The position numbers were made by a program, and so were the translations under genes. A model generated the notes under the pieces. That model ran no database searches, was not told the origin of the DNA, and worked only from the letters and a program-made list of their open reading frames with translations. This document shows, one piece after another, positions 2,393-64,000 of a stretch of 64,000 nucleotides of DNA (the first letter of the stretch is position 1; each line of letters opens with the position of its first letter). The stretch is from NCBI GenBank assembly GCA_030390025.1, contig CM059432.1, forward strand, positions 55,244,001-55,308,000. The letters are read 5' to 3'. The stretch is from Squalus acanthias. Taxonomy: Eukaryota.

Positions 2393-4545
2393 GGGGGGAA
2401 AGTTAGTGTGCGCCACGAGAATTGCTGGCGTCACCGGCAACTCGAGTTAACAGCCGCTGAAAATGGCCGCAGCGCTACCGGCCAAAAATTTGCACTGGGG
2501 GTTGGTGATGTGGAGCACAGCGCTAACTTACCGTGCAACGCCCTCCTGGTGGCGTTAATGGAGGCCTCCGACCCGAAGCTCCCGTCCACAGTCGGTGTTA
2601 CAGCTTCTTACAGCCACTAGGAGCGAGGCTGTGGAGTTCACAAGGCATTGTGGGCAATTAAAGGGGCTGTGAATTAAAGGGGCAATGCATCTAAAACTAA
2701 TAAAAATTAAAATCAAGTGAAAAAATGCATTTCTCAGCCCTTACTACCTTTCAAAAAAAAATAAACATTAAAATTAATTCCCAAATGGCAGTCTTCAGCT
2801 CTTCAAGCTGAATTATCTTCCACACCTAAAAAAATGGTAAAAGTGCTTCAGCACTAACACAAATGGCTCAGCAAGCCAGGGAAGGGGCACCCAGCATCTC
2901 GCACGCAGCACTCCAGCTTTGTGCAGGGGGTCAACATTGGAAGAGAGGTCCTCTACCCACAGGGACAAGGAGGCCCTCCAGAAAGAATGATGTGCCACCA
3001 CATCACCGAGGCCGTCACTGCCAGCAGTGTCGCCCCCACCACCTGGCTCCAGTGCCCAAAGAAGCTTCATGACCTCAGACCACTAGTCAAGGTCAGTGAA
3101 TGCATCTTCAAAAGCAGTCTCCTACCAACTGCATCACTAGCCTCACGCACTGCTCAATGCACGACTCCCGCCACCGCCCCCCCCCCCCCCACCCCCCATC
3201 ACTCACCAACCAACAATCTGTATCAATCACAAGGCACATCTCCCATTCCTAGCCTCACCTCACCCCCTTGGAGGAGACGGTGTAGGCCATTCTTGGCAGG
3301 GGCATGGCTGAGCCCTTGGCCAGCAGCAGGGCTAAAACGATACAAGATGCTGGTATCCTCATACGTTATCCTCCTTCTTGCTTTCCCGCAGTCCCCTCAC
3401 CACAACTCCACCCTTGTGCCTTCCTCATTGCACACACCCAAGAAATGCAGCCTGCCCAGCCAGTGGGTGACCAAAAAGAGGGAGAGGAGAGTGAAGAAGA
3501 ACAAGAAGAAGAAGATTGATTTGACACTCCCAGCCACCAGCTCCTCAATGTCAACCAGCAAGGCCATTTGCAGTGTCCCACACTGAAAGTCAGCAGCCTT
3601 CCACCAGCCATGCTGCAGCCATTGGGGTAGCACTGCGTGACATCAGTAGGATAGGAAAAGCCACACACAAGACAGCCACTAAGAGAATGCCTAAGGGTGA
3701 TGAGTTGATTTTTTGATGTCATATTGGATGGATAGATATATAAAGTTGGATTGGAAAGTTTGCTTTGTGGTGGCTTTTATTTCAGCATTGTGGCCAAGAG
3801 GACACTGTGATGGTCAGTAACAGAGGGAAGGTAAGGTGTGGGAGAAATGTTGAAAGGGGAATTGGGGTTGTGGTCACTGGGACCACAGGCGGATGATTCC
3901 ATCCCAGCTAACCCGGCCACAAAGAGCTGTCTGGGAGGCATCCTTCCATCTGCGTCCTCCTCTTCTGCTTCCTCCTCTTCAGCTTCCTCTTCGGCTTCTT
4001 TTTCTGTGTTTTCCTCTTCCCTCTCCAAGCGGATGCTGTAAATCTTAAATGCCAGCATAAAATGCTGGAATTACTCAGCAGCTCAGGCAGTATCTCGAAC
4101 TGAGTTGTGAACTCTGTTTCTCTCTCCACGGATGTTGCCTGACCTGTATTTGCAGCATTTTCTGTTTCCTCAGAGGCCTTCCTTTACCATCCGAGGCCTT
4201 GAAAGCATCCAGCAGCACGCCCTACACAATTAAAAACTTTTTACATCTACTGCAGCAAGCCACTACTTCAATAAAAAATTTTTAAAACCCTGTCCAAAAG
4301 CTTAAATGCAAACTTACCTGAAAAATATGTGTGTCCCTTTAAGAGGTGCTGACAGCTTTACACGCTGAGTTTCCTTGGCGTGGTTATGACCCAGCGCTGA
4401 ACTCAGAGCTAGGGTCGAAGTTTGCCGTGGTGACATTAAGTTGGCATTGCATACCGACTGAGGTCACCAATCCGCCATTTTTTTGCAGGGCGCTAATACT
4501 TATCGGCAGCGCTACAGGGAGGACCAAAATAGAGGACACCATGGG
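2393..4545. mobile_element. Degenerate PIF/Harbinger deletion derivative (Myb/SANT remnants on +, transposase tail on -)
   Basis: tta|GGGGGGAAAGTT left terminus. REVLYPQG...TWLQCPKKLHDL Myb-like fragments with frameshifts. 3580-3900 is homologous to 46350-46620. Right boundary approximate. Confidence 0.8.
4058..4170. mobile_element. Penelope-like terminal fragment in inverted arrangement
   Basis: aaaatgctggaattactcagcag... followed by its degenerate reverse complement. Same sequence as the termini at ~42780 and ~63200. Confidence 0.75.
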
Positions 4546-5715: not shown

Positions 5716-7247
5716 GGCTTCACAGTAGAAAACACAAAAAACATACCAGAAATAGTGGGAAAGCGAGCGTCTAATGAGAGTGAGGAATTTAAAGTAATTA
5801 ATATTAGTAAAGAAAAAGTTCTGGAGAAATTAATGGGACTAAAAGCCGGCAAATCCCCTGGACCTGATGACCGACAACCTAGGGTTCTAAAAGAGGTGGT
5901 TACAGAGATAGTGGATGCATTGGTTGTGACCTTCCAAAATTCTCTAGATTCTGGAATGGTTCCACTGGATTGTAAGGTAACAAATGTAACACCACTATTC
6001 CAGAAAGGAGGGAGAGAGAAAACTACAGGCCAGTTAGCCTGACATCAGTCGTCGGGAAAATGCTGGAATCCATTATTAAGGAAATGGTAGCAGGACACTT
6101 AGAAAATCGTAATGTAATTAGGCAGCGTCAGCATGGTTTTATGAAAGGGAAATCGTGTTTGACAAATCTGTTTTAGAGTTTCTTGAGGATGTAACTAGCA
6201 GGGTAGATAAAGGGGAACCAGTGGATGTAGTATATTTGGATTTTCAAAAGGTATTCAATAAGGTGCCACACAATAGGTTGTTACACAAAATAAGGGCTCA
6301 TGGAGTTGGGGGTAATATATTAGCATGGATAGAGGATTGGTTAAAGGACAGAAAACAGAGAGTAGGAATAAATGGGTCATTTTCAGGTTGGCAGGCTGTG
6401 ACTAGTGGGGTGCCGCAAGGATCAGTGCTTGGGCCTCAGCTATTTACAATCTATATTAATGACTTAGATGAAGGGACCGAGTGTAATGTATCCAAGTTTG
6501 CTGACAATACAAAGCGAGGTGGGAAAGTAAGCTGTGAAGAGGACATCTACAAAGGGATGTAGACAGGTTAAGTGAGTGGGCAAGAAGGTGGCAGATGGAG
6601 GGAAAATGTGAGATTATTCACTTTGGTAGGAAGAATAGAAAAACAGAATATTTTTTAAATGGTGAGAAACTATTAAATGTTGGTGTCAGAGGGATTTGGG
6701 TGTCCTTGTACACAAATCACAGAAAGTTAACATGCAGGTACAGCAAGCAATTAGGAAGGCAAATTGTATGTTGGCCTTTATTGCAAGGGGGTTGGAGTAC
6801 AAGACTAAGGAAGTCCAGTTGCAATTGTACAGAGCTTCGGTGAGACTACACCTGGATTACTGTGTACAGTTTAGGTCTCCATACCTAAGGAAGGATATAC
6901 CTGCCTTAGAGGGGTGTAAAGAAGGTTCACTAGATTGATTCCTGGGATGAGAGGGTTGTCCTATGAGGAGAGATTGAGTAGATTGGGCCCATACTCTCTT
7001 AGAGTTTAGAAGAATGAGAGGTGAGCCCAGTGAAACATATAAGATTTTTAAAAGGCTTGACATGGTAGATGCTGAGAGGCTTTTTCCCCTGGCTGTGGAG
7101 TCTAGAACTAGGGGGCATAGCCTCAGGATAAGGGGTCGGCCATTTAGGACTGAGATGAGGAGAAGTTTCTTCACTCAGAGGGTTGTGAATCTTTGGTATT
7201 CTCTACCCAAGAAAGTTATGGATGCTCAGTTGTTGAATATATTCAAG

Positions 7248-7419
7248 ATGCGGAGATGCCGGTGTTGGACTGGGGTGGACAAAAGTGAGAAGTCGCACAA
7301 CACCAGGTTATAGTCCAACAGCTTTATTTGAAATCACAAGCTTTCGGAGCGCTGCTCCTTCGTCAGGTGATTTCTTGTGATTTCAAATAAAGCTGTTGGA
7401 CCATAACCTGGTGTTGTGC
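7248..7419 (-). mobile_element. Short Penelope-derived insertion with inverted repeat and 13-bp TSD
   Basis: Flanked by GAATATATTCAAG at 7235-7247 and 7420-7432. Contains 48-bp inverted arms (7293-7340 / 7374-7421, one mismatch). Confidence 0.85.
7330..7374 (-). ncRNA. Minimal type I hammerhead ribozyme
   Basis: Minus strand reads GAAAUCAC-CUGACGA-A-GGAGC-AGC-GCUCC-GAAA-GCUU-GUGAUUUC. It has an 8-bp stem I, an intact core, a 5-bp stem II, a palindromic AGCU stem III and a CUU triplet. Confidence 0.88.
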
Positions 7420-8067
7420 GAATATATTCAAGGCTGAGATCGATAGATTTTTGGACTCTAAGGGAATCAAGGGATATGGGGATTGGGCGGGAAAGTGGAG
7501 TTGAGGTCAAAGATCAGCCATGATCTTATTGAATGGCGGAGCAGGCTCGCGGGGCTGTATGGCCGACTCCTGCTCCTATTTCTTATGTTCTTATGACAGG
7601 TTCGCTGTGATTACAACTGCAAATTCTGGCTATAATGAAAGACTCCTTTGAAGAGTGCTAAATGTTTACAATGGTCTGCCATGAAGGCAAGTAGGGAAAA
7701 AGCATTGAGGTTATACAAGAAACACTCCAATGCTATAGTGAGAGAATTAGGGTTCTAGAGGTCTGGGCTTTGAGATCTGAGTGACATTTTTTCATCCCTA
7801 ACTTTTCTTACATTATCTTCTGTAATTATGTGGTCGGAATCATAGTTAAATAATCTGCTTGCATTACATTATACATTTGTCTAAGCACATTTAAAAAACA
7901 ACTTAATTCTCTTAGAATTATTTTCTCCAATGACAAAAGATGAGTTCTGAATCTCTCTTCATAACAAGGGCTCCAAATCCCACAAGTATCGTATTGGTTT
8001 TCTCTGAACCCTCTCCAATGTCTCAATATTCCTTTGAAAATAGGAGGCAGGATTTTTCTTTTCTTTA

Positions 8068-9962
8068 CTGTTCTGACAAAAGGGCATCGACCTGAAACGT
8101 TAGCCGGAATTTTGCTGGTGCTCAGCGGATGGGATCGGTGGCGGGTCAGCAGTTAAACGTGAATTGATTGACAGCCGGTTGGGAACTCGCTGTCACATCA
8201 CGCATACTTGCCTTTCCCGATGTTGGGTCCACCAGCGCTGAGCAGATCCGACAGGCAGAGGTGGGGAAGCCAATTTAAATGATTAGTGGCTTGTTTATAA
8301 CCACTTAACAATGGTTTTAAACTTACCTTTTGAATTTAACAGCGCGCTCATGGGTTTCACACTGTTGCTAGACCACGTCTGTGAAGCTGAGGCGGGAGGT
8401 CAGTGGCCATTGAATCAGCTGATGAGTTGACAGCTTTAAATGTCAAGTAAAAGCTCCCACCTTCCAGAAATATCTTCCCTCAGCCACAAGCTCTTCCTCA
8501 CTGCATTTCCACAACAGATTCACCATGCTGCAAGTCTTTAAACAAGTCTCCATCCAATCTGACCTCATTACCTCTCTCACCATTGACAGATCACTTCTGT
8601 CATCTCCACTGCACCTGCCATCTATTCCATCAGCATGGGTGGCCCTTTATACTCTCTCACCTTGATCCTCAGAATCCGACCACGATCAGCCCCAACACCA
8701 GCAGCACCAGGCACACCAGCAGCACCAACAACAACATCAACCTTCTCTGCAATCACCTGATGCTGCACAGGACACAGGGCATCAGCACCCGAGCACATTG
8801 CTGCCCGGGACACCAGGGATGGCCTCACCATGGCCACATTTACTTCACTTGACACTGCACACTCTGGGTGCCACATGATGCGGCAGGTTGGCACCACCCC
8901 ATACCAACAACATAAAGCATCCCTACAATGCCCAAGCCATTCCTTTCACACTCATCAGCATTGCGGGGGGTACAGTTATGTTTCACCATTAACTGCAACT
9001 CACTAAGCCACTTCCAAAGGTGCACACAAATCTGTCCAAGAATGCAAAGTGTTGAAAATAAAGTTTTCAATGTTTGACAGCACATTAACAGAAACTTTTC
9101 ACGAACATCGGCTAAAACACCCAAGTGCCTACCCTTGTGTGTTGTTAGTTGGTATGATTGCACTAGGATGAGGGTGTGTGTGAGGGGTGACTAGTGAGAT
9201 GGGGATGTGATAATGTAGATAGAGAGGGATAGGTGGAGGTGCAAGGTAAGTTGGTGTAAGGATGTGCAGGAGTAGGGTAGGGAAGGCAGAGTGATGGGGA
9301 TGTGATGAGTGGCACAGCAGGATGAGGTTGAGTGTGGCTTTGTACTAACGTTTCATGATCTAATGAGATCATTGAAAGGTTTGTGCCACTGCACCCAGGC
9401 CCTCCTGACAACATCCCTGCTTGTGCCCTCCTTTGCAATGTGCAACCAGGCTGTGTTGGTGTCCTGGGGAAGTGTCTTCTGCCCATAGGAAGGGAAGAGG
9501 ATCTCCCTGCGTGCTGTGACTCCCTTCATAAGCATATGGAGGGAGTCACGGGAGAGCCTGTGTGCAGCTCTGTGCCATTGTGCAGTGCTTGTCAGTGTTT
9601 GCAGCACCTCAATGCTGTAGAACACTGACAGCACAATTGTCAAAATCAATTTGTGCCTGGTCCCTTTAAGCAAACTGTCTGATGACGCATCATCAAATGA
9701 CATCACCAGACCCGCTTCCTCTAATTGGCCGGGAAATGCGCTGGGCGGGCTTAACAAGCCCAATCAACTGAAATTCATTTCAGACAGCGGGATGGAGACA
9801 GCAGCGGGGTCGGGATCCATCACGGACCCGCCAAGGTCAGCAAAATCGCGGCCGTTAACTCAGTTTCTCTCTCCGCAGATGCTGCCTGACCTGCTGAGTA
9901 TTTCCAGCATTTTCTGTTTTTATTTCAGATTTCCAGCATCTGAAGTATTTTGCTTTTGTTTT
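8068..9962 (+). mobile_element. Penelope terminus with a degenerate hammerhead, split by the Harbinger (pieces 8068-8101 and 9854-9962)
   Basis: GTT-CTGACAA-AAGGGCATCGACCT-GAAACGTT | insertion | GTTAACTCAGTTTCTCTCTCCGCAGATGCTGCCTGACC rejoins into the same terminus seen at 42780-42864. Confidence 0.85.
8102..9853. mobile_element. Non-autonomous Harbinger (double-deletion derivative)
   Basis: TIRs AGCCGGAATTTTGCTG / CAGCAAAATCGCGGCC with a 3-bp duplication (GTT). Transposase N- and C-terminal remnants on +, Myb exon 1 on - (9350-9600). Homologous to 26097-30009. Confidence 0.9.
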
Positions 9963-10765: not shown

Positions 10766-11836
10766 GTATGTGTACATTCTACTCTAAAATGTAATAATGC
10801 TAAGTAGGAATGATCATTTATTCATGTAAATCTAATCAACAACATTGTTCTACTTAAAGTTAAATATGTTCTGGTTTATGATATTCATACTATATACCAC
10901 AATTCTGCTCAAGTTATAATGACTTCCAGTAAAAAAAATGACAGGATCAGCATGTTTATCCAGTGAGTAGCTGAGCCAAAACAATAAATTTTATAATGCT
11001 CACACCACTGGCAGGGTCTTACGTGCAGCCAGTGCACATCAGAAAATCATGGGTAGCACAATTTTCTGGTAAGTGCTGTCTGCAGAGAGGTCCCACTAGC
11101 AGTGCAGGTCTTGCAAAATTTACCTTATAACACCAGGAAGGTTTGATCTCTGATTTGTGCTGAATTTCTGGCTCATGGTATGCCTCAGATGTGAAACCGA
11201 TTTCTCATGCAGTGAGCTCCTAATCTAATCCCCAGGTCTCCGAACAAGCAGAAGTGAGGTGCTTTCAACTAAAAGAGGGAAAATCAGTAATGGATCACAT
11301 GCAAGCTTTACTGCCAATTATATATTGACATTGTCAGACAGTACGTCATCACCTGACCCCTCAGATGAAGCTGAATAGAGAAAATATAGGCACAGCGGGA
11401 TGGAAGGGCAGCAAAATAAAGTAAAGTCAGATATGAGAAAATTTTGAGGGACTAAATGCCACAGTAGGTTACTATAATACCGCTCTTTCACCTATGGAAA
11501 CTAGATAAAAATCCCACCTCAGGCAGATAGAACAATAACCGAAAACTTCCATTATATGGTTCATGGGTAAATGCCCTGCACGGTGTAGCATTGAGCCATA
11601 CAGACTGGAAAGTTCCAGATTCAACCCCTTATCTGCAATGTTTAGTTTGTCTGAATCAGACCAGTGATGAGGCACTGCAACTGGCCACGAAAAAAAAATT
11701 AGAAGGAACATTGCTCGGGATACCCAACAGCTGAAGGGAGACGAGAACTGCTGGATCAGCAGGTAAGTGCTTTTCCAGCACTGCTTGTGGGCCAGGAGGA
11801 GCAGCAGTGCTTCCCCCCGGCCCCACAAGTTTATCT

Positions 11837-12235
11837 GCCGTGATTGGCCAAACCCCCGCCCCGTGATCGGCCAAACCCCCGCCCCGTGATCGGCCAAACC
11901 CCCGCCCCGTGATCGGCCAAACCCCCGCCCCGTGATCGGCCAAACCCCCGCCCCGTGATCGGCCAAACCCCCGCCCCGTGATCGGCCAAACCCCCGCCCC
12001 GTGATCGGCCAAACCCCCGCCCCGTGATCGGCCAAACCCCCGCCCCGTGATCGGCCAAACCCCCGCCCCGTGATCGGCCAAACCCCCGCCCCGTGATCGG
12101 CCAAACCCCCGCCCCGTGATCGGCCAAACCCCCGCCCCGTGATTGGCCAAACCCCCGCCCCGTGATCGGCCAAACCCCCGCCCCGTGATTGGCCAAACCC
12201 CCACCCCGTGATTGGTCAAACCCCCGCCCCTTGAT
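11837..12235. repeat. 23-bp GC-rich minisatellite, about 17 units
   Basis: Unit CCCCGTGATCGGCCAAACCCCCG, nearly invariant, with a few ATTGG variants. It produces the 23-aa periodic ORFs in all three minus frames. Confidence 0.97.
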
Positions 12236-13210
12236 CCAATCTTCAGGACTGGATTGAGCTACGATGTGATGTCCCTTCATGGTTAAGTAACCTGTTGACA
12301 TTAACGGGTCAATTACTTCTCCTCCCTGCCCCTGTCTGAGTGCATCCAAAGTGCTATCAGTCCGATGAGACCTTCACTTACTCACATTTGCCTGAGAGGA
12401 CTGCAGCAGTTGTAACAGCCAACAGCCTCGGGCCTTCTGACTGCTGTCCAAAGACCCGATACTGATCCTAATGGCCCTGAATTAAGAAGGAACTTAACCC
12501 TTTTGAAGCCTCCAGGAATTTACTGCCTGCCCATTCTCAGATCTCACATTCTGAGGTGGGCTGGGCAGAAGCATTTAGGCCAACTTTCTATGGACACCTC
12601 AGCATTCTGGCCATCATCAGCTGAAACCCAGGAAAATGAGGCATGTTGACATCACTCTCACCTCATTAACATCTGATTTACATGAAAACAAGATGGAAAC
12701 CTGACATCGTAGGTCTCTACCCTTTTTTCTTCTGTTGTGTCCATGGGAAATAAGTAAACCCTGGGTGCAAAGCAGAGGAAAATATGCTCCTAGCTGTTTA
12801 GACTCAGATGTGAACAATTAAGGTACAGAAAGATTGCTGGTCCCATGCAACTATTCACCTGCCTGAGTTAATGACTTTAAGCAGTGAAAATTAGGAGCAA
12901 AACAAAAGTTTCACTCCTTAGCAGTCTCGTCCCATATCTTGATGAAAACAAAACAAAAAGAAAGGTGTTTCAAATGAAATAGCTGCTATTGTAGTAATGG
13001 CCTGTCTGTAACAACAACCTTTGGGACTGAACATAAATGCTTGTTGTAAAGCGATTCCTGTATTCAGACTTTTCATTCATATTTATGACAATGGAATTAG
13101 GATTGTAAATAGCACTGACCGTGGCATCAGGATATTTTGCACATTCAGGGGACCTGTACAGGTTTTACTATGTATTGCAAACAATTGTAGCTTAAGCTAA
13201 CCAACACAAT

Positions 13211-13976: not shown

Positions 13977-14124
13977 ATTCCCTCCCTCCCCACAGCTATC
14001 GGGGCTAGTGTCTCCAGCTTGCAAGTTGTGACTGGATTCATTCCAATTATCACTTAGCACCCACAACTCTTCAAACTCCTGTGGATGTTTTATGTAAATC
14101 ATGAACAGGGCATTCGTAATTGAT

Positions 14125-14290
14125 ATAACAACAGAAAATGCTGGAAACACTCAGCAGGCCAGGCAGCATCCGTGGAGAAAGAAACAGACTCTGTTTCTCT
14201 CTCCACAGATGCTGCCTGGCCTGCTGAGTGTTTCCAGCATTTTCTGTTGTTATTTCAGATTTCCAGCATCCGCAGTATTTTGCTATTGTA
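14125..14290. mobile_element. Palindromic Penelope terminal fragment
   Basis: 64-bp arms (14125-14188 / 14190-14253) with two mismatches and a 1-nt spacer. Sequence equals the PLE terminus. Confidence 0.88.
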
Positions 14291-14517
14291 CTCGTAATTT
14301 ATGCCTGGTTTTCCACACTTAATTTCAAAGGGGTGTTACGAACGATTTAAATCAGCTGTTCCAAACATTTCAAATTCATTTTTGTTAAATCAACATCTCA
14401 ACTAGACAGATGTTATTCTATTTGAGGTAACTGTAGTAATTCCAGATGATATATATATTGAAACCATTAACTTTTCGTTTGGCTTGTGCATTCATTTGTG
14501 TTGCTATTTTATTCAAG

Positions 14518-25631: not shown

Positions 25632-26099
25632 TTCAATGTTTGACACCACATTAACAAAAACTTCACATAAACATTAGCTAAACCACACAAGTGCCTACCC
25701 CTGTGTGTTGTTAGTTGGTATGATTGGACTAGGATGAGTGTGAGTGTGAGGGGTGGCTAGTGAGATGGGGAAGTAATAATGTAGATAGAGAGGGATGGGT
25801 GGAGGTGCAAGGTAAGTTGGTGTGAGTAAGGATGTGCAGAAGTAAGGTATGGAAGGCAGAGTGATGGGGATGTGATGAGTGGCACAGCAGGATGAGGTTG
25901 AGTGTGGCTTTGCAGTAACGTTTCGTGATCTACTGAGATCATTGAATGGTTTGCGCCACTGCAGCCTGGTCGTCCTGACGACATCCCTGCTTGTGCCCTC
26001 CTGTGCAATGTGCAACCAGGCTGCGTAGGTCTCCTGGGGAGGTCTCTTCCGCCCATTGGAAGGGAAGAGAACCTCCCTGTGTGGTGTGATTCCCTTCAT
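25632..26099 (-). mobile_element. Fragment of the non-autonomous Harbinger family, fused head-to-head to the next element
   Basis: Colinear with 9064-9530, including the same internal deletion junction. Confidence 0.88.
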
Positions 26100-26119
26100 T
26101 GAGGTGCTGCAAACACTGA

Positions 26120-28017
26120 CAAGCACATCACAGAGGTGCACGGCTGCACCCAGGTTCTCCAATGACTCCCTCCATATGCTTGTGAAGGGAGTCAGAGCAC
26201 ACAGGGAGGTCCTCTTTCCTTCTAATGGGCGGAAGAGACCTCCCCAGGAGACCAAAAGAGCCTGGCTCCAAATTGCAGAGGAGGTCAATAGCAGGGAAGT
26301 CATCAGGAGGACCTGGGTGCAGTGGTGCAAACGTTTCAATGATCTTGTTAGATCAGGAAAGGTAAGTCCAAAGTCACACTCAACTTCATCCTGCTGTGCC
26401 TCTCATCACATCCCCATCACTCTGCCTTCCCAACCCTACTCCTGCACATCCTTACTCACACCAACTTACCTTGCACCTCCACCCATCCCTCTCTCTCTAC
26501 ATTATCACATCTCCATCTGACTAGCCACCCCTCACACTCACCCTCATCCTAATGCAATCAAACCAACTAACAACACACAAGGAGGCCACTTGGCTTTGGC
26601 ACCCCACTCCATCATAGTCACCCTCTAAAGATGTAACCCATTCATTCCTTACACTCATTCCATCACTCTCATTCAACGTACTCTTCGTTCCCTCCTTACA
26701 GGAAAAGAGAGCCCACAATAAGAGGGAGAGGGAGAGAACCGGAGGCGGAACGCCACCATTGGTGACCCTAACATCAGCAGCGGAGGCTGCCTTGAAAGTT
26801 TCTGGAGTCGCAGAGCAGCTGGAAGTGGGAGACAGAGAGAGGGGGCATCTCAGCAACCTGGTGACAGAATTACATATCATACAGCTAAGTGGCATACATC
26901 AGTCACTCATATGGGCACTGATGTCAGCAGCCACTGAATGGTCATCATGTGCATAATGGTATCTGTACCCATTCTTCATATGGCATATCTAACTCATCTC
27001 TTTACTCTCTCACAGGTCCATCAATAGCCCCCTGCCCCCACACCCCCACTGTCCAGGAGCAAGAGGAAGATGACTCCTCAGAGGAGCCTCCAGCCTCTGA
27101 GGGCGCACCGTCACCAGACAGAAGCGCACCCAGCACCAGCGCAGATACGCACACCTCCGTGGGTGCCACACGAATTAGAGTAGTGTTGTCACCTGGTGAC
27201 TCACAACTCACAAGTGAGCAAGAGCAGATGGTGGAGACAGGGACAGCAGTGGTGACTCCTGGCTGGAGGGGGCAGGACTCTCCCAGCTCTGCTCAGCTAC
27301 ATGCAGACACTGAGCCTCAGGGGCCATCCAGAAAGAGGGCGATCCTGGAGCTGCAGGAACAAGTGCAGGAGGCTTTGACAGGTTTTGCAAGCGTGATGTC
27401 TGCAAATGTGCAGAGAATGGAGGAGTCCATCTCCAACATGAGCACCACTGTGTTGCAGGCGATGATGACTGTAGGCTCGTCCATGGATAGGATGGCTACC
27501 TGCTTGGAGCAGCTAAGGTGCCACTCACAGGAGCACATGGTCTCTCGGAGATTAGATGGCTATCTATGGAGCATAGATGGCAGAGGCTCATAGACCTCCT
27601 GTCTAGGAGGGATGTCAGCGTAGACGTGGGTCCTCATGGCCCCACTGATGTGCAGTAAGGTGCTCTCCAGCTCCTTGCTAGCAGGGAAGTGCGGGTGGCC
27701 CATGAAAGGGATGATGGTGAGAGGGACATGGAAGCGGGGGCTCCTCTCAAAGCGCTCATACTTCTCCCCCGTTGCCATCCCCTCAGTCAGAGCCCCAGAT
27801 GCCTCCTCGGATCACGATGGTCGAGTCAGCCCCTGCACAGTCGCAGGAGGAGCAGACTTTGGCGGGGCCATCACAGGCTCCAAAACCCAGAGGACATCCA
27901 CCAAAAGTGTCTAAGCAGTCACAGCAGGGAATTGAGCAAGCTGCCTCTACCTCTGCTGAAGCCATAGGGGTAGCACCTCGTAGAAGCACGCGTAAGAGAA
28001 AGATGAAACACAAGTAG
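26120..28017 (+). pseudogene. Harbinger Myb/SANT-like DNA-binding protein, 3 exons (~26120-26361, 26702-26860, 27016-28017), disrupted
   Basis: APRFSNDSL..L..REVLF...AWLQIAEEV....RTWVQWCKRFNDL. GT-AG introns (aag|gtaagt, tacag|gaaaag, cacag|gtc). Basic C-terminal RRSTRKRK. Frameshifts in exons 2-3. Confidence 0.85.
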
Positions 28018-28306
28018 ATTCACAAGGGTAGCCACTTGGGTGTTTTGGTAAATGATTCTGTAAAGTTTCCGTTACTGTAATGTCACACATAAAAATCTTT
28101 ATTTGCACCACTTGGACAAATTTGTGTGCACCTTTGGAAGTGGCTTAGTGTGTTAGAGTGATAGGTGAGACATAACGTTACCTCCAGCAATGGTGGTCAG
28201 TTTGAAAGGAATGGCTTGGTCATGGTAGGGATGCGTTATGGTGTTGCTGTGGGGTAGTGCCAACCTGGTGCAGCATGTGGTTGCCATATGGGTGTAGTGC
28301 GTAAAT

Positions 28307-29488
28307 TTAAGTAAATCTGGCCATGCTGAGCCCATCCCTGGCCCCCCGGGCAGCAATGTGCTCGGGTGCTGGTGGGATCTGGACCACAGCTTCCTCCTGC
28401 TCTTCCTCCTCCTCCTCCTGCTCCTCTCTGAAGAGGTGGTGTGCTCAGTGCCTTGCTCCTCATGCAGTGCTAATCCTCGCTGCTGCACTATGTTGTGCAG
28501 GGCACAGCAGACCACGACAATTCTGGAGACCCTGGCTGGTGCGTACTGAAGGGCTCCTCCAGATCTGTCAAGGCATCTGAAGTGCATTTTCAGCATGCCT
28601 ATTGTCTGCTCTATGACACATCTGGTGGAAATGTGGCTTTCATTATATCTTTCCTGGGCCTCAGTACTTGGCCTCCTCAAGGGTGTCATGAGCCACGTCT
28701 TCAGTGGATAGCCCTTGTCTCCAAGCAGCCAGCCGGAAAGTCTGTTTCGAGGAGCGAAGAGCTGAGGGAGAGTGGACTGGTGAAGGGCAAAAGAGTCATG
28801 ACAGCTGCCAGGGAATTTGGTGCACACATGCATGTTGATCTTCCTATGGTTGCAGACGAGTTTCACATTGAGGGAGTGGAATCCCTTGTGGTTGACAAAG
28901 ACTTCTGGGTTATGATGGGGTGCCCTGATGGCCACATGTGTGCAGTCGATGACACCCTGCACCCATGGGAAGCCAGCCAGAGTGGCAAAGCTAAGCGCCC
29001 GCTTTGTAACACTGGCTTCATCAGTGGCAAAGCTGATATAATTGGCTGGCTTGTCAAACAGGGCATCAGTGACCTGTGTGATGCATCTGTTGGCGGCCGA
29101 TTGCAGGATGCCACAAATGTCTGCTGCAGATCCCTGGAAAAAGCCTGAGGTGAAGAAGTTGAGGGCACTGGTGACTTTGACAGCCACTCATAAGGTGTAT
29201 CCACCCGCTCCTCTGGTCTGCAGGTCTTGCTCCAGTAAAGTGCAAATATCTGCGATGACCTGGTTCGATAGCCTGAGCCTCCTTTGGCTCTGCTGCTCAG
29301 TCATGTTGAGGAAGCTCATCCTCTGCCTGTATACCCTGTGTTGGGGGTATCGCCTCCGGGGCGGTGCAGCCCTGCGCTGATGCCCTCTGTCCTGTGCAGC
29401 ATCAGGTGGTTGAGGAGAAGGTTGGTGTTGCTGCTGGTGTGCCTGGTGCTGCTGATGACCAAGGTGAGACAGTATAGAATGCACCCAT
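28307..29488 (-). pseudogene. Harbinger DDE transposase (HARBI1-like), disrupted
   Basis: GVIDCTH, GSCHDS, LLGDKGY, YNESH..TR.VIEQTIG.LK..FRCL motifs and an acidic tail. In-frame TGA at ~29189 plus frameshifts. Confidence 0.95.
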
Positions 29489-31488: not shown

Positions 31489-32831
31489 TGTGGCGGATCG
31501 CCACCTAAACGGGCGCAATCCACTTTTCCGTCCGTGGACAATAAATCGGGCACCTTGCCTTTAAGGCAGGAGAAAAGGAGTGGGCGGGTCCTCAGAACCT
31601 TTCAGAGAGTTGTGTTAGCAGCCATCTTAGCAGGCAGATGTATTAAAAAGCTTTTGTGTTTCACACATGGACTCGGCCTTAATTCGTGTTTCGCGGCAAC
31701 CACAACATTGGTGACCCCGACGCTCAGAACGTATTCCGAGCACTGCAATGGCGGACACGAACGCAGTTTCCGTGAAACTGCCGGAGTTTTGGGAAAACCA
31801 GCCCGAAGTCTGGTTCCTTCAAGCCAAGTCGCATTTCCGGCTGCGAAACATCACCACAGATGGGACGAAGTACGACTATCTCGTCACATCACTCGGTAGC
31901 TCCACAGTTACGAAGGTCTGGACAGCACTGCAGAACCCACCAGGGGAGGGCAAGTATGTACATCTTAAGGCCGCGCTCTTTAAAAAATTTACGGCCTCGG
32001 CATACCAGCGAAACTGCCACCTCCTTGAACTTCCAGGCCTCGGTGATGCCTCACCGTCAGACCTCCTCTCCTACATGCTCTCCCTCACTGACGAGAGCCC
32101 ACCCGGATCCCTCTTCCGCACGCTGTTCATCCGCCAGCTACCTCTCAGCATCCGCCCAGCGATCGTGGCGTCCGGCCTCACAGACCTGGAAGCCCTGGCC
32201 GAGGAAGCCGACAAGCTGCTGTCCGCTCACTCCAGCCGCGACGTCACTCCGGACCTGGCAGCCACCGCCCGGGCGCGCCCCTCACCGGCCACCACGCGGC
32301 CACATGGCCCAGCCACCGAGCTCACGGGGCCTTCGCGCCCCACTAACCCGGGCCACTGTTACTACCACGCACGGTTCGGCGCCAGGGCACAACGGTGCAC
32401 ACCTCCCTGCTCTTTCAAGTCCGCCCCCATACCAGCCCCCGCGATGGCCGTGGGCCACGCAGGCTCCCTGCTGTACGTCACGGATGACAAAACTGGCCGC
32501 CGGTTCCTGTGCGACACTGGAGCTCAGCACAGCATCATCTCGGCCTCCTCCCTCGACATCCAAAAGGGCAAACGAGGACCGGCGCTGGCTGCTGCTAACG
32601 GCTCGGACATTCGGATGTACGGCACCCGCACAGTCACCCTCGACCTCGCTGGTCGCCGCTACCGATGGGAGTTCATCACTGCCAAGGTGCTCTCCCCTCT
32701 CATCGGCGCAGATTTCCTGTGCGCCCACGGCCTACTGGTAGACATCCCTCGACACCGCCTCGTGGACATGAACACCATGTCCCCCATCCTGGGCGCCATG
32801 GCCCCCCGTCAACCCGCCGACATGGCATCAC
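31489..32831 (+). mobile_element. Ty3/Gypsy (CsRN1-like) LTR retrotransposon, 5' part: LTR, tRNA-Trp PBS, gag-protease
   Basis: LTR TGTGG...CCACA(ACA) at 31489-~31707. PBS TGGTGACCCCGACG (31709-31722) is complementary to the tRNA-Trp 3' end. ORF has KLPEFW..PEVWF, a CYYH-x9-C-x3-C knuckle and DTGA / IGADFL protease motifs. Confidence 0.93.
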
Positions 32832-33043
32832 ATAGGAAAAATAGAAAAGCAGAGTATTTTTTAAATGGTGAGAGATTGGGAAATGTTGGTGTTCAGAGGG
32901 ACCTGGGTGTCCTTGTACACGAATCACTGAAAGTTAACATGCAGGTACAGCAAACAATTAGGAAAGCAAATGGTATGTTGGCCTTTATTACAAGAGGATT
33001 TGAGTATAAGACGTCTTACTGCAATTATATAGGGCCCTGGTGA
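31748..33043 (+). CDS. Gag-protease ORF, continued in frame by ~70 codons of CR1 ORF2
   Basis: Uninterrupted 431-aa ORF. Switches from Gypsy to CR1 sequence at ...ADMASH|RKNRKAEYFLNG (~32831). Confidence 0.75.
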   Translation: MADTNAVSVKLPEFWENQPEVWFLQAKSHFRLRNITTDGTKYDYLVTSLGSSTVTKVWTALQNPPGEGKYVHLKAALFKKFTASAYQRNCHLLELPGLGDASPSDLLSYMLSLTDESPPGSLFRTLFIRQLPLSIRPAIVASGLTDLEALAEEADKLLSAHSSRDVTPDLAATARARPSPATTRPHGPATELTGPSRPTNPGHCYYHARFGARAQRCTPPCSFKSAPIPAPAMAVGHAGSLLYVTDDKTGRRFLCDTGAQHSIISASSLDIQKGKRGPALAAANGSDIRMYGTRTVTLDLAGRRYRWEFITAKVLSPLIGADFLCAHGLLVDIPRHRLVDMNTMSPILGAMAPRQPADMASHRKNRKAEYFLNGERLGNVGVQRDLGVLVHESLKVNMQVQQTIRKANGMLAFITRGFEYKTSYCNYIGPW

Positions 33044-33686
33044 GACCACAGCTGCGGTATTGTGTACAGTTTTGGTCTCCTTACCTAAGGAAGGATATAG
33101 TTGCCATAGAGGGAGTGCAACGAAGGTTCACCAGACTGGTTCCTGGGATGGGGGGATTGTCCTATGAGGACAGATTGAGTAGACTAGGCCTATATTCTCT
33201 GGAGTTTAGAAGAATGAGAGGTGATCTCATTGAAACATACAAAATTCTTACAGGGCTTGACAGGGTAGATGCAGGGAGGATGTTTCCCCTGGCTGGGGAG
33301 TCCAGAACCAGGGGTCACAGTCTCAGAATAAGGGGTCGGCCATTTAGGACTGAGATGAGGAGAAATTTCTTCACTCAGAGGGTGGTGAATCTTTGGAATT
33401 CTCTACCCCAGAGGGCTGTGGAGGCTCAGTCGTTGAGTATATTCAAGACAGAGATCGATAGATTTTTGAATATTAAGGGAATCAAGGGATATGGAGATAG
33501 TGCGGGAAGGTGGAGTTGAGGTAGAAGATCAGCCATGATCTTATTGAATGGTGGAGCAAGCTAGAAGGGCCAAATGGCCTACTACTGCTCCTATTTCTTA
33601 TGTTCTTATGTTAAGCATGTGGTGGCACAGTGCATTGGAAGTCCAATGTGATGCCTTCATGTTGAGTTCTCAGTCTGAATTATAAT

Positions 33687-42306: not shown

Positions 42307-42774
42307 TATTTTCACGTTCTTTATTTATTATCTTTATCTATTTATTGGGATTGTTGATAAGATAACTACAACATTTTGTTTTACATCTGAGACTTTGAAT
42401 TTACTTTTTTTTTAAGATGGTAAGGATGTTCTTCCATTGGTGGAAAAGCTCTTGAATAAGTTAAATCATATTATTTTCTTCCTAATACACATTACTGGGG
42501 GAATCGTGTTTGCCAAATACCAAATGGACAGGTTCGTTCGTCATAGCTGCAAAGTGTTGCAGACCGCCAGTTCATTCAGTGTTTCCCAGTTATAAATGAG
42601 TACAAAGCCAAAGGGCAGGCTGGCACTGATGTCATAATAGAATATGCTGAGTATTGTAAAAATAGGAAATTATAAGAATTGCAAATTCTAAGTGTGGAGT
42701 TTAGGCTTTTGGGCCCCCCGCAGAAACCACAGATAGAGCGCTCGGGCAAATTCAAAACTGTTAAAATGTTGAAA

Positions 42775-43872
42775 GAACAACAGAAAGCGCTGGAAAAACT
42801 CAGCAGGCCAGGCAGAGAGAGAAACAGAGTTAACGTTTCAGGTCGAAGACCCTTCGTCAGAACTGAGAAAAAAGCAGGAAATGAAACAGATGAAAAAGCA
42901 AGTTTGGAGGCTGGGGGAAGGAATAAAAGAACAAAAGGGGAGGTCTGTGAGAAGTAGAGACATTAAGAGATACTCAAGGTGAGACGAGATGGCAATAGGA
43001 CAGGTTAAGAAACAAAAGATGGCTCTAGAAGTGTGAAATGCGCTGGCAGAATGAGAGACAGCTGCCATGTGGGAGAGAGAAAAAAAAAGGGAAAAGGCAC
43101 AAACCAAAAGTGTGGATAAAAAAAATATATATATATATGGTAGGGGCCAAGGTTATGATCTGAAATTGTTGAACTCGATATTGAGTCCGGAAGGCTGTAA
43201 AGTGCCTAATCGGAAGATGAGATGCTGTTCCTCGAGCTTACGCTGAGCTTCTGTGGAACAATGCAAGAGGCCGAGGACGGTGAGGTCTGAGTGGGCGTGG
43301 AGCAGTGAGTTAAAGTGACAGGCGACCGGAAGCTCGGGGTCACCCTTACGGACTGAACGGAGGTGTTCCGCAAAGCGGTCACCCAATCTGCGTTTGGTCT
43401 CCCCAATGTAGAGGAGACCACATCGTGAGCAGCGAATACAGTATACTAGATTGCAAGAAGTACAAGTAAATCGCTGTTTCACCTGGAAGGGATGTTTGGG
43501 GCCCTGGACAGTGGGAAGGGGGGAGGTATAAGGGCAGGTGTTGCATCTCCTGCGCTTGCACGGGAAGGTGCCGGGCGAGGGGGAAGGGGTGCTGGGGGTG
43601 ATAGAGGAGTGGACTAGGGTGTCTCCGAGGGAGCGGTCCCTACGGAATGCTGAAAGGGGAGGTGAGGGGAAGATACGTTTGGTGGTGGGATCACGTTGGA
43701 GGTGGCAGAAATGGCGGAGGATGATCCGTTGAATGTGGAGGCTGGTGGGGTGAAAGGTGAGGACAAGGGGAACTCTATCGTGGTTCCGGGAGGGAGGGGC
43801 AGGGGTGAGGGCAGAAGTGCGGGAGATAGAACGGACTCGGTTGAGGGCCGTGTCAACCACGGTAGAGGGGAA
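42775..43872 (-). mobile_element. Penelope-like retroelement 3' part (Neptune-type Cys linker, GIY-YIG endonuclease, terminal repeat)
   Basis: ORF 43153-43860 has CKRRRCNTC, LVYCIRCSRCGLLYIGETKRRLGDRFAEH and RKLEEQHLI..L.TLQPSGLN. Confidence 0.95.
42828..42864 (-). ncRNA. Minimal type I hammerhead ribozyme in the PLE terminus
   Basis: AGUU-CUGACGA-A-GGGUC-UUC-GACCU-GAAA-CGUU-AACU. Palindromic ACGU stem III and GUU triplet. Same strand as the PLE ORF, ~290 nt after its stop. Confidence 0.88.
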
Positions 43873-44337
43873 TGTTGACTCTAGTCATACTTACCTACAC
43901 TTGTTCAGAAGGTAAGGCAGCTTTGAGGAGAACAGGGGAGCACGTTTTTGCTGTCAGCAGCAAAATACGCATAAGGTTAGTCTCTTCCTGAGCTCTGGAA
44001 ATTGCCCATGAGTTATCATTAATGGCACAACTCTCATGAGCCCAGGACATTTGAACTGGCTAAATTACCTTACTCCATATCACTCAAGAGCTTCTACCCG
44101 CGGCCCTTACCAAGCTCATACCCTCCGAGACCCACCACCTGTTACTGCAATCCTCTTCCCACTCAGAACCTAACTATGTAACTAGCCTTCCTTACTCCTA
44201 TTCTTGCAGACTTTGTAAATGGCTCTCTCTCTGCTTGGGCACTATTCCCCTTCACTTCAAAATTGCCACCATCACCCCTCTCCATAAGAAGTCTACCTTC
44301 AACTGCATTGTCTTCTCCAACTACAGCTAGATATCTA

Positions 44338-53001: not shown

Positions 53002-53460
53002 TTAACTCTTGTTTCTCTCTCCATAGATGCTGTCTGACCTGCTGAGTATTTCCAGCATTTTCTGTTTTTATTACAGCATATCCTTCTTTTCTTCCTCGTG
53101 TGCTTATCTAGCTTCCAGTGAAATGCATCTATACTATTTGCCTCAAGCACTCCCTGTGGTAGCAAGTTTCACATTCTCACCACCCTCTGGGTAAAGAAGT
53201 CTCTCCTGAATTCCCTATTGGATTTATTAGTGACTATCTTATATTTATGGCCTCTATTTTTTGTCTCCCTCACAAGTGGAAACATCTTTTCTACGTCTAC
53301 CCTATTGAAACCTTTAATAATTTTAAAGACCTCTGTTGGGTCACCCCTCAGCCTTCTCTTTTCTAGAGAAAAGAGCTCCAGCCTGTTCAATCTTTCCTGA
53401 TAGGTATAACCTCTCAGTTCTGGTATCGTCCATGTAAATCTTTTTTGCACCTTCTCCAGT
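53002..53460. mobile_element. PLE terminal fragment (53002-53077, +) abutting a CR1 3' fragment (53078-53460, -)
   Basis: PLE terminus sequence, then LEKVQKRF...RLRGD...RGHKYK...FFTQRVV on the minus strand. Confidence 0.88.
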
Positions 53461-57412: not shown

Positions 57413-58090
57413 TGAGATGTTTACCCTATGAGGAGAGATTGAGTAGAATGGGCCATTTTTCTCTGGAGTTCAGAAGAAGGAGAGGTGATCTCATTGAAAC
57501 GTATAAAATTCTTAGAAGGCTTGACAGGGTAGATGCTGAGTGGAAAGTCTAGAACTAGGGGTCATAGTCTCAGGATAAGGGGTCAACCATTTAGGACTGA
57601 GATGAGGAGAAATTTCTTGACTCAGAGGGTTGTGAATCTTTGAAATTCTCTACCCCAGAGGGTGAGGCTCCAAGCTGGAAGACAGCAATCTCAAGACTGT
57701 GATCGATAGATTTTTGGACACTACGGGAATCAAGGGATATGGGGTAAAAACAGAAAATGCTGGAAATACTCAGCAGGTCAGGCAGCATCTGTGGAGAGAG
57801 AAAGAGAGTTAACATTTCAGGTCTGTGACCTTTTCTCAGAACTGGAAAAAGTTAGAGATGTAACAGATTTTAAGCAAGTGCAGGGGCAGGGAAAGGGGGG
57901 AGGGGAGGAAAGAACAAAAGGGGAAACAGAAATCGATGAAGATGAACATGGTAAAAGACAAATGGGGGTTATGGGGGGTTGGGCGGGAAAGTGGAGTTGA
58001 GGTAGAAGATCAGCCATTATCTTATTGAATGGTGGAGCAGGCTTTAGGGGCCATATGGCCTACTCCTGCTCCTATTTTTTATGTTCTTAC
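57413..58090 (+). mobile_element. CR1 3' fragment with a PLE terminus inserted (~57745-57970, -)
   Basis: SRTRGHSLRIRG and CR1 tail. The insertion is flanked by TATGGGG repeats and carries a decayed hammerhead (57807-57843, core CUGAGAA). Confidence 0.85.
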
Positions 58091-62070: not shown

Positions 62071-63157
62071 AGCCACTGGGAAGTCAGTAATGATTATTTT
62101 GTGCTTAAACTGAGGAGTTTCAGCATCAGTACCCCATGAAGAACATTAACAATCTTTACTTTCTTTTTGGTATTTCTGTTGAGATTTTTGAAGTGGAATG
62201 GGCTCTGGCTGTTTAACCCTAGAAATAAGTTTTTGTAAGAATATATGGGTTACCTGACTGGACCAGACAAATTGCCATTTGTTAGCTAATTAAATACACC
62301 ACTTTCCACTTTTCTATTAGTCAAAGGTAAAGGAATATTAAGAATATGGTGATATCCCTAATTATGTGTTCATATCTCTTGCCACTCCCTATTCCATTCT
62401 GCAATCTGCGTGCAATACTTTTCAAAGTCACCAATGGTATTCTGTGTAATTTCAATCACCTTTTTCTATCTCCAGAGCATTATCCACTGCCCCACGCCAT
62501 CTCCTCTCTCCTCTTTATCAAGTAATATTTGGTTTTTGCTGTCCCATCTTGGCCTCATCTGTCGTCAACAATATTGACCATTCCATTCATTTCCATTTTC
62601 CACCTCCAGGGCACCGCTCCTACCTGTCCCAAAGTACTCACAAGATTACAAGATAATTATGGATGAAAATGCTATTCCATTCACCTTGGTTCATCCATCC
62701 TAAAAGGCCTTAAAGTTCCCTATTGCAGCATCCAATTGTTTCTTAAATAATTCCAAGTTTTTCACCTCCATTATTCTATCTAGGAATCCATTTCATGTGT
62801 TAATCACACTCTCTGTGAAGAACTTCCTGATGTCTATCCTAAACTTGTCTCTCTCAATTTAGTTGAAATAGTTTTCCACATTTAGCTTTTTTCATACCCT
62901 TGACTATCTTATATTCCTTGAAGGAGATCACTTTTCAGATGCCTTCTTTCATGGCTGAAAAACCCAAGTCTCTCCTATTGTGCCTGTAGCTCTTTGCTAG
63001 AACAATCCATGACTCCTAGGTCTCACTGTATCTCGTCCAATTGGTTTTTCTTCCCTCCCAACAAAATGATCCAGTGGTGTGACTGTCTGTCCAACATCAA
63101 GTGCTGGATGAGCTGAAATTTCCTACAGCTCAACAAAGACAAGATTGAAACAATCTC

Positions 63158-64000
63158 AATAGCAAAATACTGCGGATGCTGGAAATCCGAAATAACAACA
63201 GAAAACGCTGGAAAAACTCAGCAGGTCAGGCAGCATCCGTGGAGAGAGAAACAGAGTTAACGTTTCAGGTCGAAGACCTTCCGTCAGAACTGGAAAAAAG
63301 CAGGAAATGAAATAGATTTTAAAGCAAGTTTAGGGCTGGGAAAAGGGGGAGGGGAGGAAAGAACAAAAGAGGTCAGTGATAGGATGGAAAGCAGAAGAGA
63401 TTAAGAGACATTGAGAGACATTAAGAGATATTCAAGGCAAGAGGAGGTGGTAATGGGACATGTTAAGGAACAAAGGATGGCTCTAGATGAAGTGTGAATT
63501 GCGCTGGCAGAATGAAGGACAGCTGCCATGTGGGAGGGAAGAAAAAAAGGCCAAACAAAAAAGTGTGGATAAAAAAAAATATATAAAATAAAAAATATAT
63601 ATATGTGATACGGGCCGGGGTTATGATCTGAAATTGTTGCACTCTATGTTGAGTCCAGAGGGCTGTAGAGTGCTTAATCGAAAGATGAGGTGCTGTTCCT
63701 CGAGCTTACGTTGAGCTTCCGTGGAACAATGCAAGAGGCCGAGGACGGTGAGATCTGAGTGGGAATGGAGCGGTGAATTAAAGTGACAGGCCACTAGGAG
63801 CTCGGGGTCACCCTTACGGACTGAACGGAGGTATTCCGCAAAGCGGTCTCCCAATCTGCATTTGGTCTCCCCAATGTAGAGGAGACCACATCGTGAGCAG
63901 TGAATACAGTATACTAAATTGCAGGAAGTACAAGTAAATCGCTGTTTCACCTGGAAGGGGTGTTTGGGGCCCAGGACAGTGGGAAGGGGGGAGGTATAAG
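63158..64000 (-). mobile_element. Second Penelope-like element 3' end (GIY-YIG), continuing past the window edge
   Basis: ORF ending at 63621 is nearly identical to 43153-43860. Terminal repeat carries a hammerhead variant at 63255-63291 (core CUGACGG). Confidence 0.95.

Follow-up and report, generated by a model that had tools for sequence, protein, structure and literature searches.

Since 2008-2013 Penelope-like elements (PLEs) have been known to leave complex insertions in which a head-to-head inverted copy lies beside the direct repeat, and the passages on such insertions in the work on Pen2a_Av of Adineta (PMC3846280), in a further account (PMC8557442) and in the work on the Penelope element of D. 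virilis (PMC2377424) furthermore describe an extension at one end, a short target site duplication (TSD), a palindrome at the junction and landing in a LINE. All of these features recur in the insert reported here, 172 bp of non-coding DNA at 7248-7419 of the window, by which we mean the whole stretch of 64 kb that was analysed. Inverted pLTRs with a tail and a 9-bp TSD have been reported to carry palindromes at the inverted junction, which were read as self-priming (PMC3846280), and the inverted repeats of D. virilis Penelope differ in size from copy to copy (PMC2377424). The insert departs from these published cases in that it has kept no ORF and measures only 172 bp, that its TSD is 13 bp rather than 8-10 bp and its overhang 45 nt rather than 31-40, and that its junction falls on helix I of a hammerhead motif, a feature that goes without mention in the passages on complex insertions.

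The hammerheads of metazoan PLEs (PMC4209133) share with the insert the CUGANGAH core, the G10.1-C11.1 pair and the AU-rich 3' flank; its palindromic 15.2/16.2 G-C pair followed by U-U is as given there for Chrysemys and Philodina, and the 4-bp helix I of its family is identical to that of the lamprey Poseidon motif in the supplement. The insert is unlike them in its helix II of 5 bp and in a helix I stretched to 8 bp by the junction. The same survey records pairs of motifs on opposite strands as well as truncated copies standing alone, it reports that minimal motifs do not cleave as monomers and cleave weakly as dimers, and the part of its supplement text that was searched names no cartilaginous fish. 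PAc, a Poseidon element of Anolis carolinensis (PMC11167929), likewise combines an AT-rich target with a hammerhead. In purified form its protein introduces a nick into each strand of AT-rich DNA and extends both, with reverse transcription beginning at two internal sites of the RNA; these sites define the tail and have the hammerhead upstream of them. Cleavage by the Anolis motif is described as requiring the element protein, and insertion by PAc in vitro as proceeding without any need for cleavage and with no reads ending at the cut. The ORF of PAc starts in the hammerhead, whereas all three sense frames of the insert stop after the core, one of them spanning 29 codons. Finally, animal non-LTR retrozymes (PMC7229834; bioRxiv 2026.07.22.740005) are, like the insert, short, non-coding, related to PLEs and furnished with a type I hammerhead, but they are described as head-to-tail arrays with mostly canonical motifs and circular RNA, whereas the insert is a solo head-to-head stump.

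We conclude that the insert is very probably the 5'-truncated end of a Penelope-like element with a head-to-head inverted copy, left by a single retrotransposition of a very high-copy PLE. The assignment to the PLEs rests on every structural feature that can be tested, the part of the element recovered being its terminal repeat.

The insert and its target site

The insert lies between two direct copies of the 13-mer GAATATATTCAAG that are identical at 13 of 13 positions, and its parts, together with the host, are as follows.

6122-7595, plus strand: host, the decayed 3' part of a LINE with an RT domain (RVT_1, E 1.2e-14), interrupted by the insert
7235-7247, plus strand: left TSD, 13 bp, 10 of 13 A+T, overlapping the 14-bp palindrome 7233-7246 of the host LINE
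7248-7370, minus strand: direct 5'-truncated copy of the terminal repeat of the family (pLTR-like), which begins with the 5' strand of helix I
7248-7292, minus strand: 3' overhang, present in the direct copy only, holding the 'tail' of the family (3' ends at 7247 versus 7276-7281)
7293-7340, plus strand: left arm of the inverted repeat, part of the direct copy
7334-7370, minus strand: minimal type I hammerhead motif with the 4-bp helix I of the family (UCAC/GUGA), predicted cut at 7338/7337
7371-7373, plus strand: junction filler TTT, 3 nt, not family sequence, which with C7374 lengthens helix I to 8 bp
7374-7419, plus strand: inverted partial copy, head-to-head, 46 bp, with a 2-nt overlap with the right TSD
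7420-7432, plus strand: right TSD, 13 bp, identical to the left TSD

The 172-bp insertion with a 13-bp TSD had been recognised in the original prediction and is confirmed, although the end given there, 7432, takes in the right TSD. By chance, an exact 13-mer recurs across a gap of 172 nt at 408 of 200,000 random window positions. G7247 also matches the end of the family, giving a 1-nt overlap, and family pieces as well as loose ends of sister copies begin at 7247. A duplication at an AT-rich target (13 bp, 10 of 13 A+T) is characteristic of endonuclease-positive PLE insertions. The palindrome that the target overlaps is itself perfect and AT-rich, and the TSD lies off-centre to it. The host LINE, which we take to be CR1-like, has paralogs in the window near 33435 and 40282 in which the 13-mer is present once each, and a third near 57691 that is rearranged at the equivalent of the target site. 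The insert is young, as judged from the identity of the TSD copies (13/13) and of the arms (47/48). Stops interrupt five of its six frames, the sixth being a 57-codon frame without a stop, and the open-frame list of the window holds no ORF of 120 aa at the insert.

The inverted repeat joins 7293-7340 to 7374-7421 over 48 nt with a single mismatch, private to the arm at 7402, which becomes a G.U pair on minus-strand RNA, so that the 48-bp repeat originally described is upheld, and 2 of its 48 bp fall inside the right TSD. The inverted copy begins 3 nt upstream of the predicted cut and stops 45 nt before the end of the tail. An adjacent, head-to-head inverted and 5'-truncated copy, a hammerhead inside the terminal repeat and an optional tail of 30-40 bp at one end are all marks of PLE insertions that the insert displays, the last of them seen in its family as two groups of 3' ends 29-34 nt apart. 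The outer end of the arm corresponds to 7293-7295, is 12-19 nt shorter than the main tail-less group and does not occur among the 24 loose-end rows listed, beside which there are 364 more. An arm ending at the standard tail boundary did not find support (7293-7295 versus 7276-7281), and for the insert an arm ending exactly at the cleavage site was rejected, the family bases upstream of helix I being without the three extra bases. The tail region carries on the minus strand (7270-7292) a pyrimidine run ending CAG that looks like a splice acceptor by sequence.

The hammerhead motif and its competing fold

On the minus strand, helix I of the insert is formed by 7374-7367 paired with 7337-7330 over 8 bp, and it encloses the core CUGACGA (7366-7360), an additional A (7359), a helix II of 5 bp with a 3-nt loop, GAAA (7345-7342), the palindrome AGCU (7342-7339) and the triplet CUU. 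The metazoan PLE consensus is matched in the CUGANGA core, the additional nucleotide before helix II, GAAA and an NUH triplet, and both the G10.1-C11.1 pair and the palindromic 15.2/16.2 positions, with helix III absent, are present; the short helix I (about 3-5 bp) of that consensus is 4 bp in the family, the 8 bp belonging to the insert copy only. The complete minimal hammerhead that had been proposed for the minus strand, with CUGACGA/GAAA and an AGCU palindrome, is thereby borne out and fits the published Penelope consensus. A descriptor search returned two motifs in the real window, that of the insert and one at 42860, and none in any of 200 shuffles; permitting G at position 9 added a third at 63287. 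No partner motif with the same palindrome is found elsewhere in the 64-kb window. The sequence supports a Penelope-type minimal type I hammerhead with predicted cleavage.

A short unit with such a motif could also be the monomer of a non-LTR retrozyme giving circular RNA, an origin that had been offered as one branch of the original prediction, and animal retrozymes are indeed reported to derive from PLE pLTRs and to include many monomers, while a 2026 preprint admits minimal motifs in retrozymes too (both bioRxiv 2026.07.22.740005). However, a retrozyme by definition consists of units in tandem, every one with its own hammerhead and most of these of canonical type, and at the locus the motif is single and minimal, the symmetry is head-to-head and no tandem partner occurs in 64 kb. 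In addition, no canonical motif with helix III is present, and Rfam gives no hammerhead match for the insert at E up to 1, its eight matches being hairpin matches below threshold. Without tandem units at the locus, and with a minimal instead of a canonical motif, the retrozyme-like branch is not borne out and such an origin is extremely improbable. A MIR396 match in Rfam at 7304-7411 (36.9 bits against a cut-off of 80) was rejected, since it reflects the hairpin only.

The whole insert RNA is predicted to fold as a 46-bp hairpin of -90.1 kcal/mol (z-score -13.96; 0 of 200 shuffles), and forcing the hammerhead fold would cost about 10.7 kcal/mol (fraction 3e-8). In the full insert the cleavage triplet is predicted to be paired with a probability above 0.99, the unpaired probabilities in the presence of the arm being 0.004 for C16.2, 0.002 for U16.1 and 0.001 for U17. 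In simulated synthesis the arm wins once the 3' strand of helix I has been made (0.65 at 7334, 0.94 at 7330), and without the arm the permissive fraction would be 0.14 with an 8-bp and 0.06 with a 4-bp helix I. The hammerhead fold can nonetheless form, with a bulge of 10 nt, while the 35 outermost base pairs of the hairpin stay in place, and since the two can coexist in this way they compete rather than strictly exclude each other; of the earlier claim, the overlap of the arm with stem I and the triplet is confirmed, but strict mutual exclusivity is not. The long hairpin furthermore abolishes the 3' stem formed by the direct copy alone and leaves the tail outside.

That the arm pairs C16.2, U16.1 and U17 and wins during simulated synthesis would be in agreement with a selected RNA switch, in which the outer arm had come, through evolution, to keep the ribozyme inactive up to the moment of unwinding. 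Any inverted copy reaching the triplet would however have the same effect, the arm and the long helix I are missing from nearly all sister copies, and the insert is a young one inside a dead LINE, which makes selection of this kind very improbable. As regards the built-in auto-inhibition previously suggested, the hairpin is indeed predicted to shut the ribozyme off, but a designed property is not supported, at least 99.4% of the family depth at helix I stopping before the arm, and the predicted shut-off (about 10.7 kcal/mol) is a side effect of the inverted insertion. On this reading the hammerhead is a passenger of the terminal repeat. Its orientation is opposite to that of the host LINE, a partner in cis is missing, and any transcript would have the motif masked by the hairpin, so that the insert copy is most likely silent.

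Sister copies and a second Penelope family

Parts of the stretch occur in twenty public sequencing runs, and sister copies were followed in contigs of four of the 21 runs listed (X1, X3, X9 and X11) aligned to 7222-7395, a span that leaves the outer 24 bp of the arm outside; X9 is an RNA run by guess only, the other three are DNA runs, and runs X19-X21, with their small shares, were left out of the contig alignment. The matching contigs number 17,318 of 21.7 million, 11,012 of 51.4 million, 3,461 of 39.3 million and 2,509 of 1.08 million per run, and these counts show the family to be very abundant, although contig depth does not equal copy number. Thousands of sister contigs part from the window sequence at 7370, and depth collapses beyond, that at 7384-7389 relative to 7366-7370 being 0.13, 0.56, 0.045 and 0.04% in the four runs, so that at most 0.6% of the family depth proceeds into the arm, and this in several junction spellings. 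The loose ends behind 7370 (67, 51, 79 and 14 contigs) every one begin AGTG and not TTTC. Since the sister contigs leave the window sequence after 7370, helix I of the family is 4 bp, and since the loose ends begin AGTG, the outer 4 bp of the 8-bp stem are products of the junction; the 8-bp stem I originally proposed is thus present in the insert copy but is not a family trait.

Besides the junction of the insert there are forms 5 nt shorter and 2 nt shorter (each in X1 and X3), one with an additional C (X9) and a strand switch at 7282/7370 in X3. The 5-nt-shorter junction occurs in single contigs of depth 368 and 938, versus 6-30 for most of the long contigs listed. By subtraction, depth of about 430 in X1, 470 in X3 and 356 in X11 continues past the junction unitemised, and this could be the insert copy's own spelling in perhaps 10-40 loci. 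Together with the high-depth 5-nt-shorter contigs, this unitemised depth indicates that identical junctions recur, some spellings probably in tens of loci. The inversion points, for which fixed and random positions had been set against each other, are consequently neither, being clustered at helix I in several spellings. The depth of 0.3-2.4% that remains at 7372 in the three DNA runs would fit a class keeping to helix I as far as about 7374 before it departs, presumably as simple fold-backs. Towards the opposite end, unrelated flanks are attached at 7247 in 105, 98, 21 and 16 contigs of the four runs and at 7276-7281 in 25, 46 and 65 contigs of X1 and 22 and 40 of X3, with further groups of 3' ends at 7243, 7252 and 7288; the offset of 29-34 nt between the two main groups resembles the PLE tail of 30-40 bp.

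No variant rows are listed at 7339-7349 or 7253-7283, which is not taken as conservation because clipping and filters may hide some. Position 7338 gives a CUC instead of a CUU triplet in about 10% (X1) and 26% (X3) of depth, and some sister copies have a 4-nt loop II. The 64-kb window holds no other copy of the insert family, and neither there nor in the contigs listed was an RT/GIY-YIG ORF found joined to its repeat. An exact 20-nt pattern had no matches in viral, metagenome and prokaryote collections, which is uninformative for a vertebrate repeat.

The clustering of junctions at helix I, the spellings that reach depths of 368-938 in single contigs, the unitemised depth, if it does represent the insert's spelling in tens of loci, and a tail that remains outside the hairpin might all be expected if a small palindromic unit, itself non-autonomous and always inverted at the same point, were transcribed and then retroposed whole by a PLE protein. 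Such a unit is however made improbable by the facts that no more than 0.6% of the family depth enters the arm and at least three other spellings exist, that among the pieces listed none spans the whole stretch, that the long hairpin abolishes the 3' stem of the direct copy, and that an unrelated second family in the window makes the same layout without a core. The short copies of this second family are the following.

4029-4166: older inverted pair, about 82% identity, with a 15-nt filler containing a 5-bp fold-back
14114-14299: stump lacking a hammerhead core, composed of an inverted arm of 68 bp and a direct copy with a tail of 32 nt, TSD 8 bp
53002-53083: short copy for which no TSD was found, its start at -2 nt relative to the predicted cut

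The best BLAST match between the two families is 10 nt (E 1.1), and helix I, palindrome and triplet all differ, which bears out the proposal that the insert belongs to a family distinct from that at 42.8 and 63 kb. Since the second family makes the layout of inverted copy and tail without a core, a ribozyme in the loop is not required. The branch of the original prediction in which the insert is an insertion by-product is supported. The direct copy of the stump starts at 14188, +1 nt from the predicted cut, and that of the older pair, which has no clear TSD, at 4110, exactly at the predicted cut; the inverted arms begin at +3 and +21 from it.

Longer copies of the second family lie at 42771-43884, 63150-64000 and 57745-57924, with minimal hammerheads at 42860 and 63287 and a degenerate one near 57838, and four longer copies retain the core. 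A remnant of a GIY-YIG domain occupies 43153-43884, where the Pfam match (E 1.9e-4) falls narrowly below the cut-off, and the open-frame translation contains a CX4CX2C linker, which has been tied to Neptune (PMC8557442). The longer copies also carry a pyrimidine run ending AG directly at the 5' strand of helix I, as read from the sequence, and in this they resemble D. virilis Penelope, for which an intron end at helix I is reported (PMC4209133). An insertion of about 1.75 kb, bounded by similar inverted ends, separates the two halves of one hammerhead repeat (8061-8102 and 9853-9958) at the triplet, and a 5-nt repeat marks the point of breakage; the piece at 9853, being the second half of a split copy, was left out of the count of 5' ends. 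The copy at 57745-57965 likewise sits within the 3' end of a LINE paralog, some 45 nt downstream of the position that matches the target of the insert.

Elsewhere the window contains an inverted repeat of 400 bp at 25699-26582 (88% complementary, 84 nt between the arms), a tandem repeat at 11470-12370 whose minus strand stays open over long repetitive frames, an open frame of 344 aa on the minus strand (28153-29187), which we take to resemble a Harbinger transposase, and one of 442 aa (31715-33043) that runs into LINE sequence and presumably resembles the gag-protease of an LTR retroelement.

Formation of the inverted junction and what it may record

With the insert taken as a truncated PLE end, its formation may be envisaged as follows. 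The PLE endonuclease would nick both strands of the AT-rich site 13 nt apart, and the top-strand end would prime cDNA at the end of the RNA tail, which would pass the hammerhead and stop after 123 nt at the 5' strand of helix I. The 46-bp inverted arm would come from a second cDNA of opposite direction, for which the primer was either the bottom-strand nick, at a more internal site of the RNA, or the first cDNA itself after snapping back. The four self-complementary nucleotides of helix I might then serve to join the two cDNAs, a short slip yielding the TTT filler and a 10-nt duplication, whereupon repair would complete the 13-bp duplication. Priming from two nicks is to be preferred, if by no great degree, for the second cDNA, and snap-back of the cDNA is the lesser yet substantial possibility; both would, we infer, use helix I as the joint. 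Snap-back pairing on helix I has a computed probability of 0.095 at 7370 and of 0.86 after three added nucleotides, and the filler matches the continuation of helix I, for which hand arithmetic gives a chance of 1 in 64. The filler and the 10-nt duplication at the junction may also be read as marks of repair synthesis, and the palindrome could in that case have formed after insertion, by DNA repair or replication template switching. This is however scarcely credible, since the TSD encloses both arms exactly and since the layout recurs in the second family and is the pattern described for PLEs.

It is a further question whether the hammerhead, rather than merely travelling along, works in vivo and shapes PLE insertions, helix I serving as the microhomology that joins opposite cDNAs and run-off of the reverse transcriptase on self-cleaved RNA producing ends at the cut site. 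Hints in this direction are that the junction of the insert lies on helix I, that 0.3-2.4% of the depth in three DNA runs keeps to helix I as far as about 7374, and that in the second family all three short direct copies begin at or within 2 nt of its predicted cut (offset 0 at 4110, +1 at 14188 and -2 at 53002), a sample of three that was defined post hoc. Against it speak the arm of the insert, which reads 3 nt past the cut, the +3 and +21 positions of the second-family arms, and the in vitro results reported for PAc (PMC11167929). We therefore consider a shaping role of the ribozyme doubtful. A link between helix I or the cut site of a hammerhead and inverted junctions was not found in the literature searched, which was mostly open-access.

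By itself the insert carries little weight, being one of very many stumps of a known class of element, and it calls for caution in that its 8-bp ribozyme stem and its apparent switch were both made by the insertion junction. The family is abundant and young enough for its 5' ends and inversion points to be counted across the genome and set against the hammerhead, and such a count bears on how the inverted repeats of PLEs are formed and on whether PLE hammerheads cut in vivo. If the ribozyme does shape the insertions, genomic stumps of this kind would constitute a fossil record of ribozyme cleavage in PLEs.
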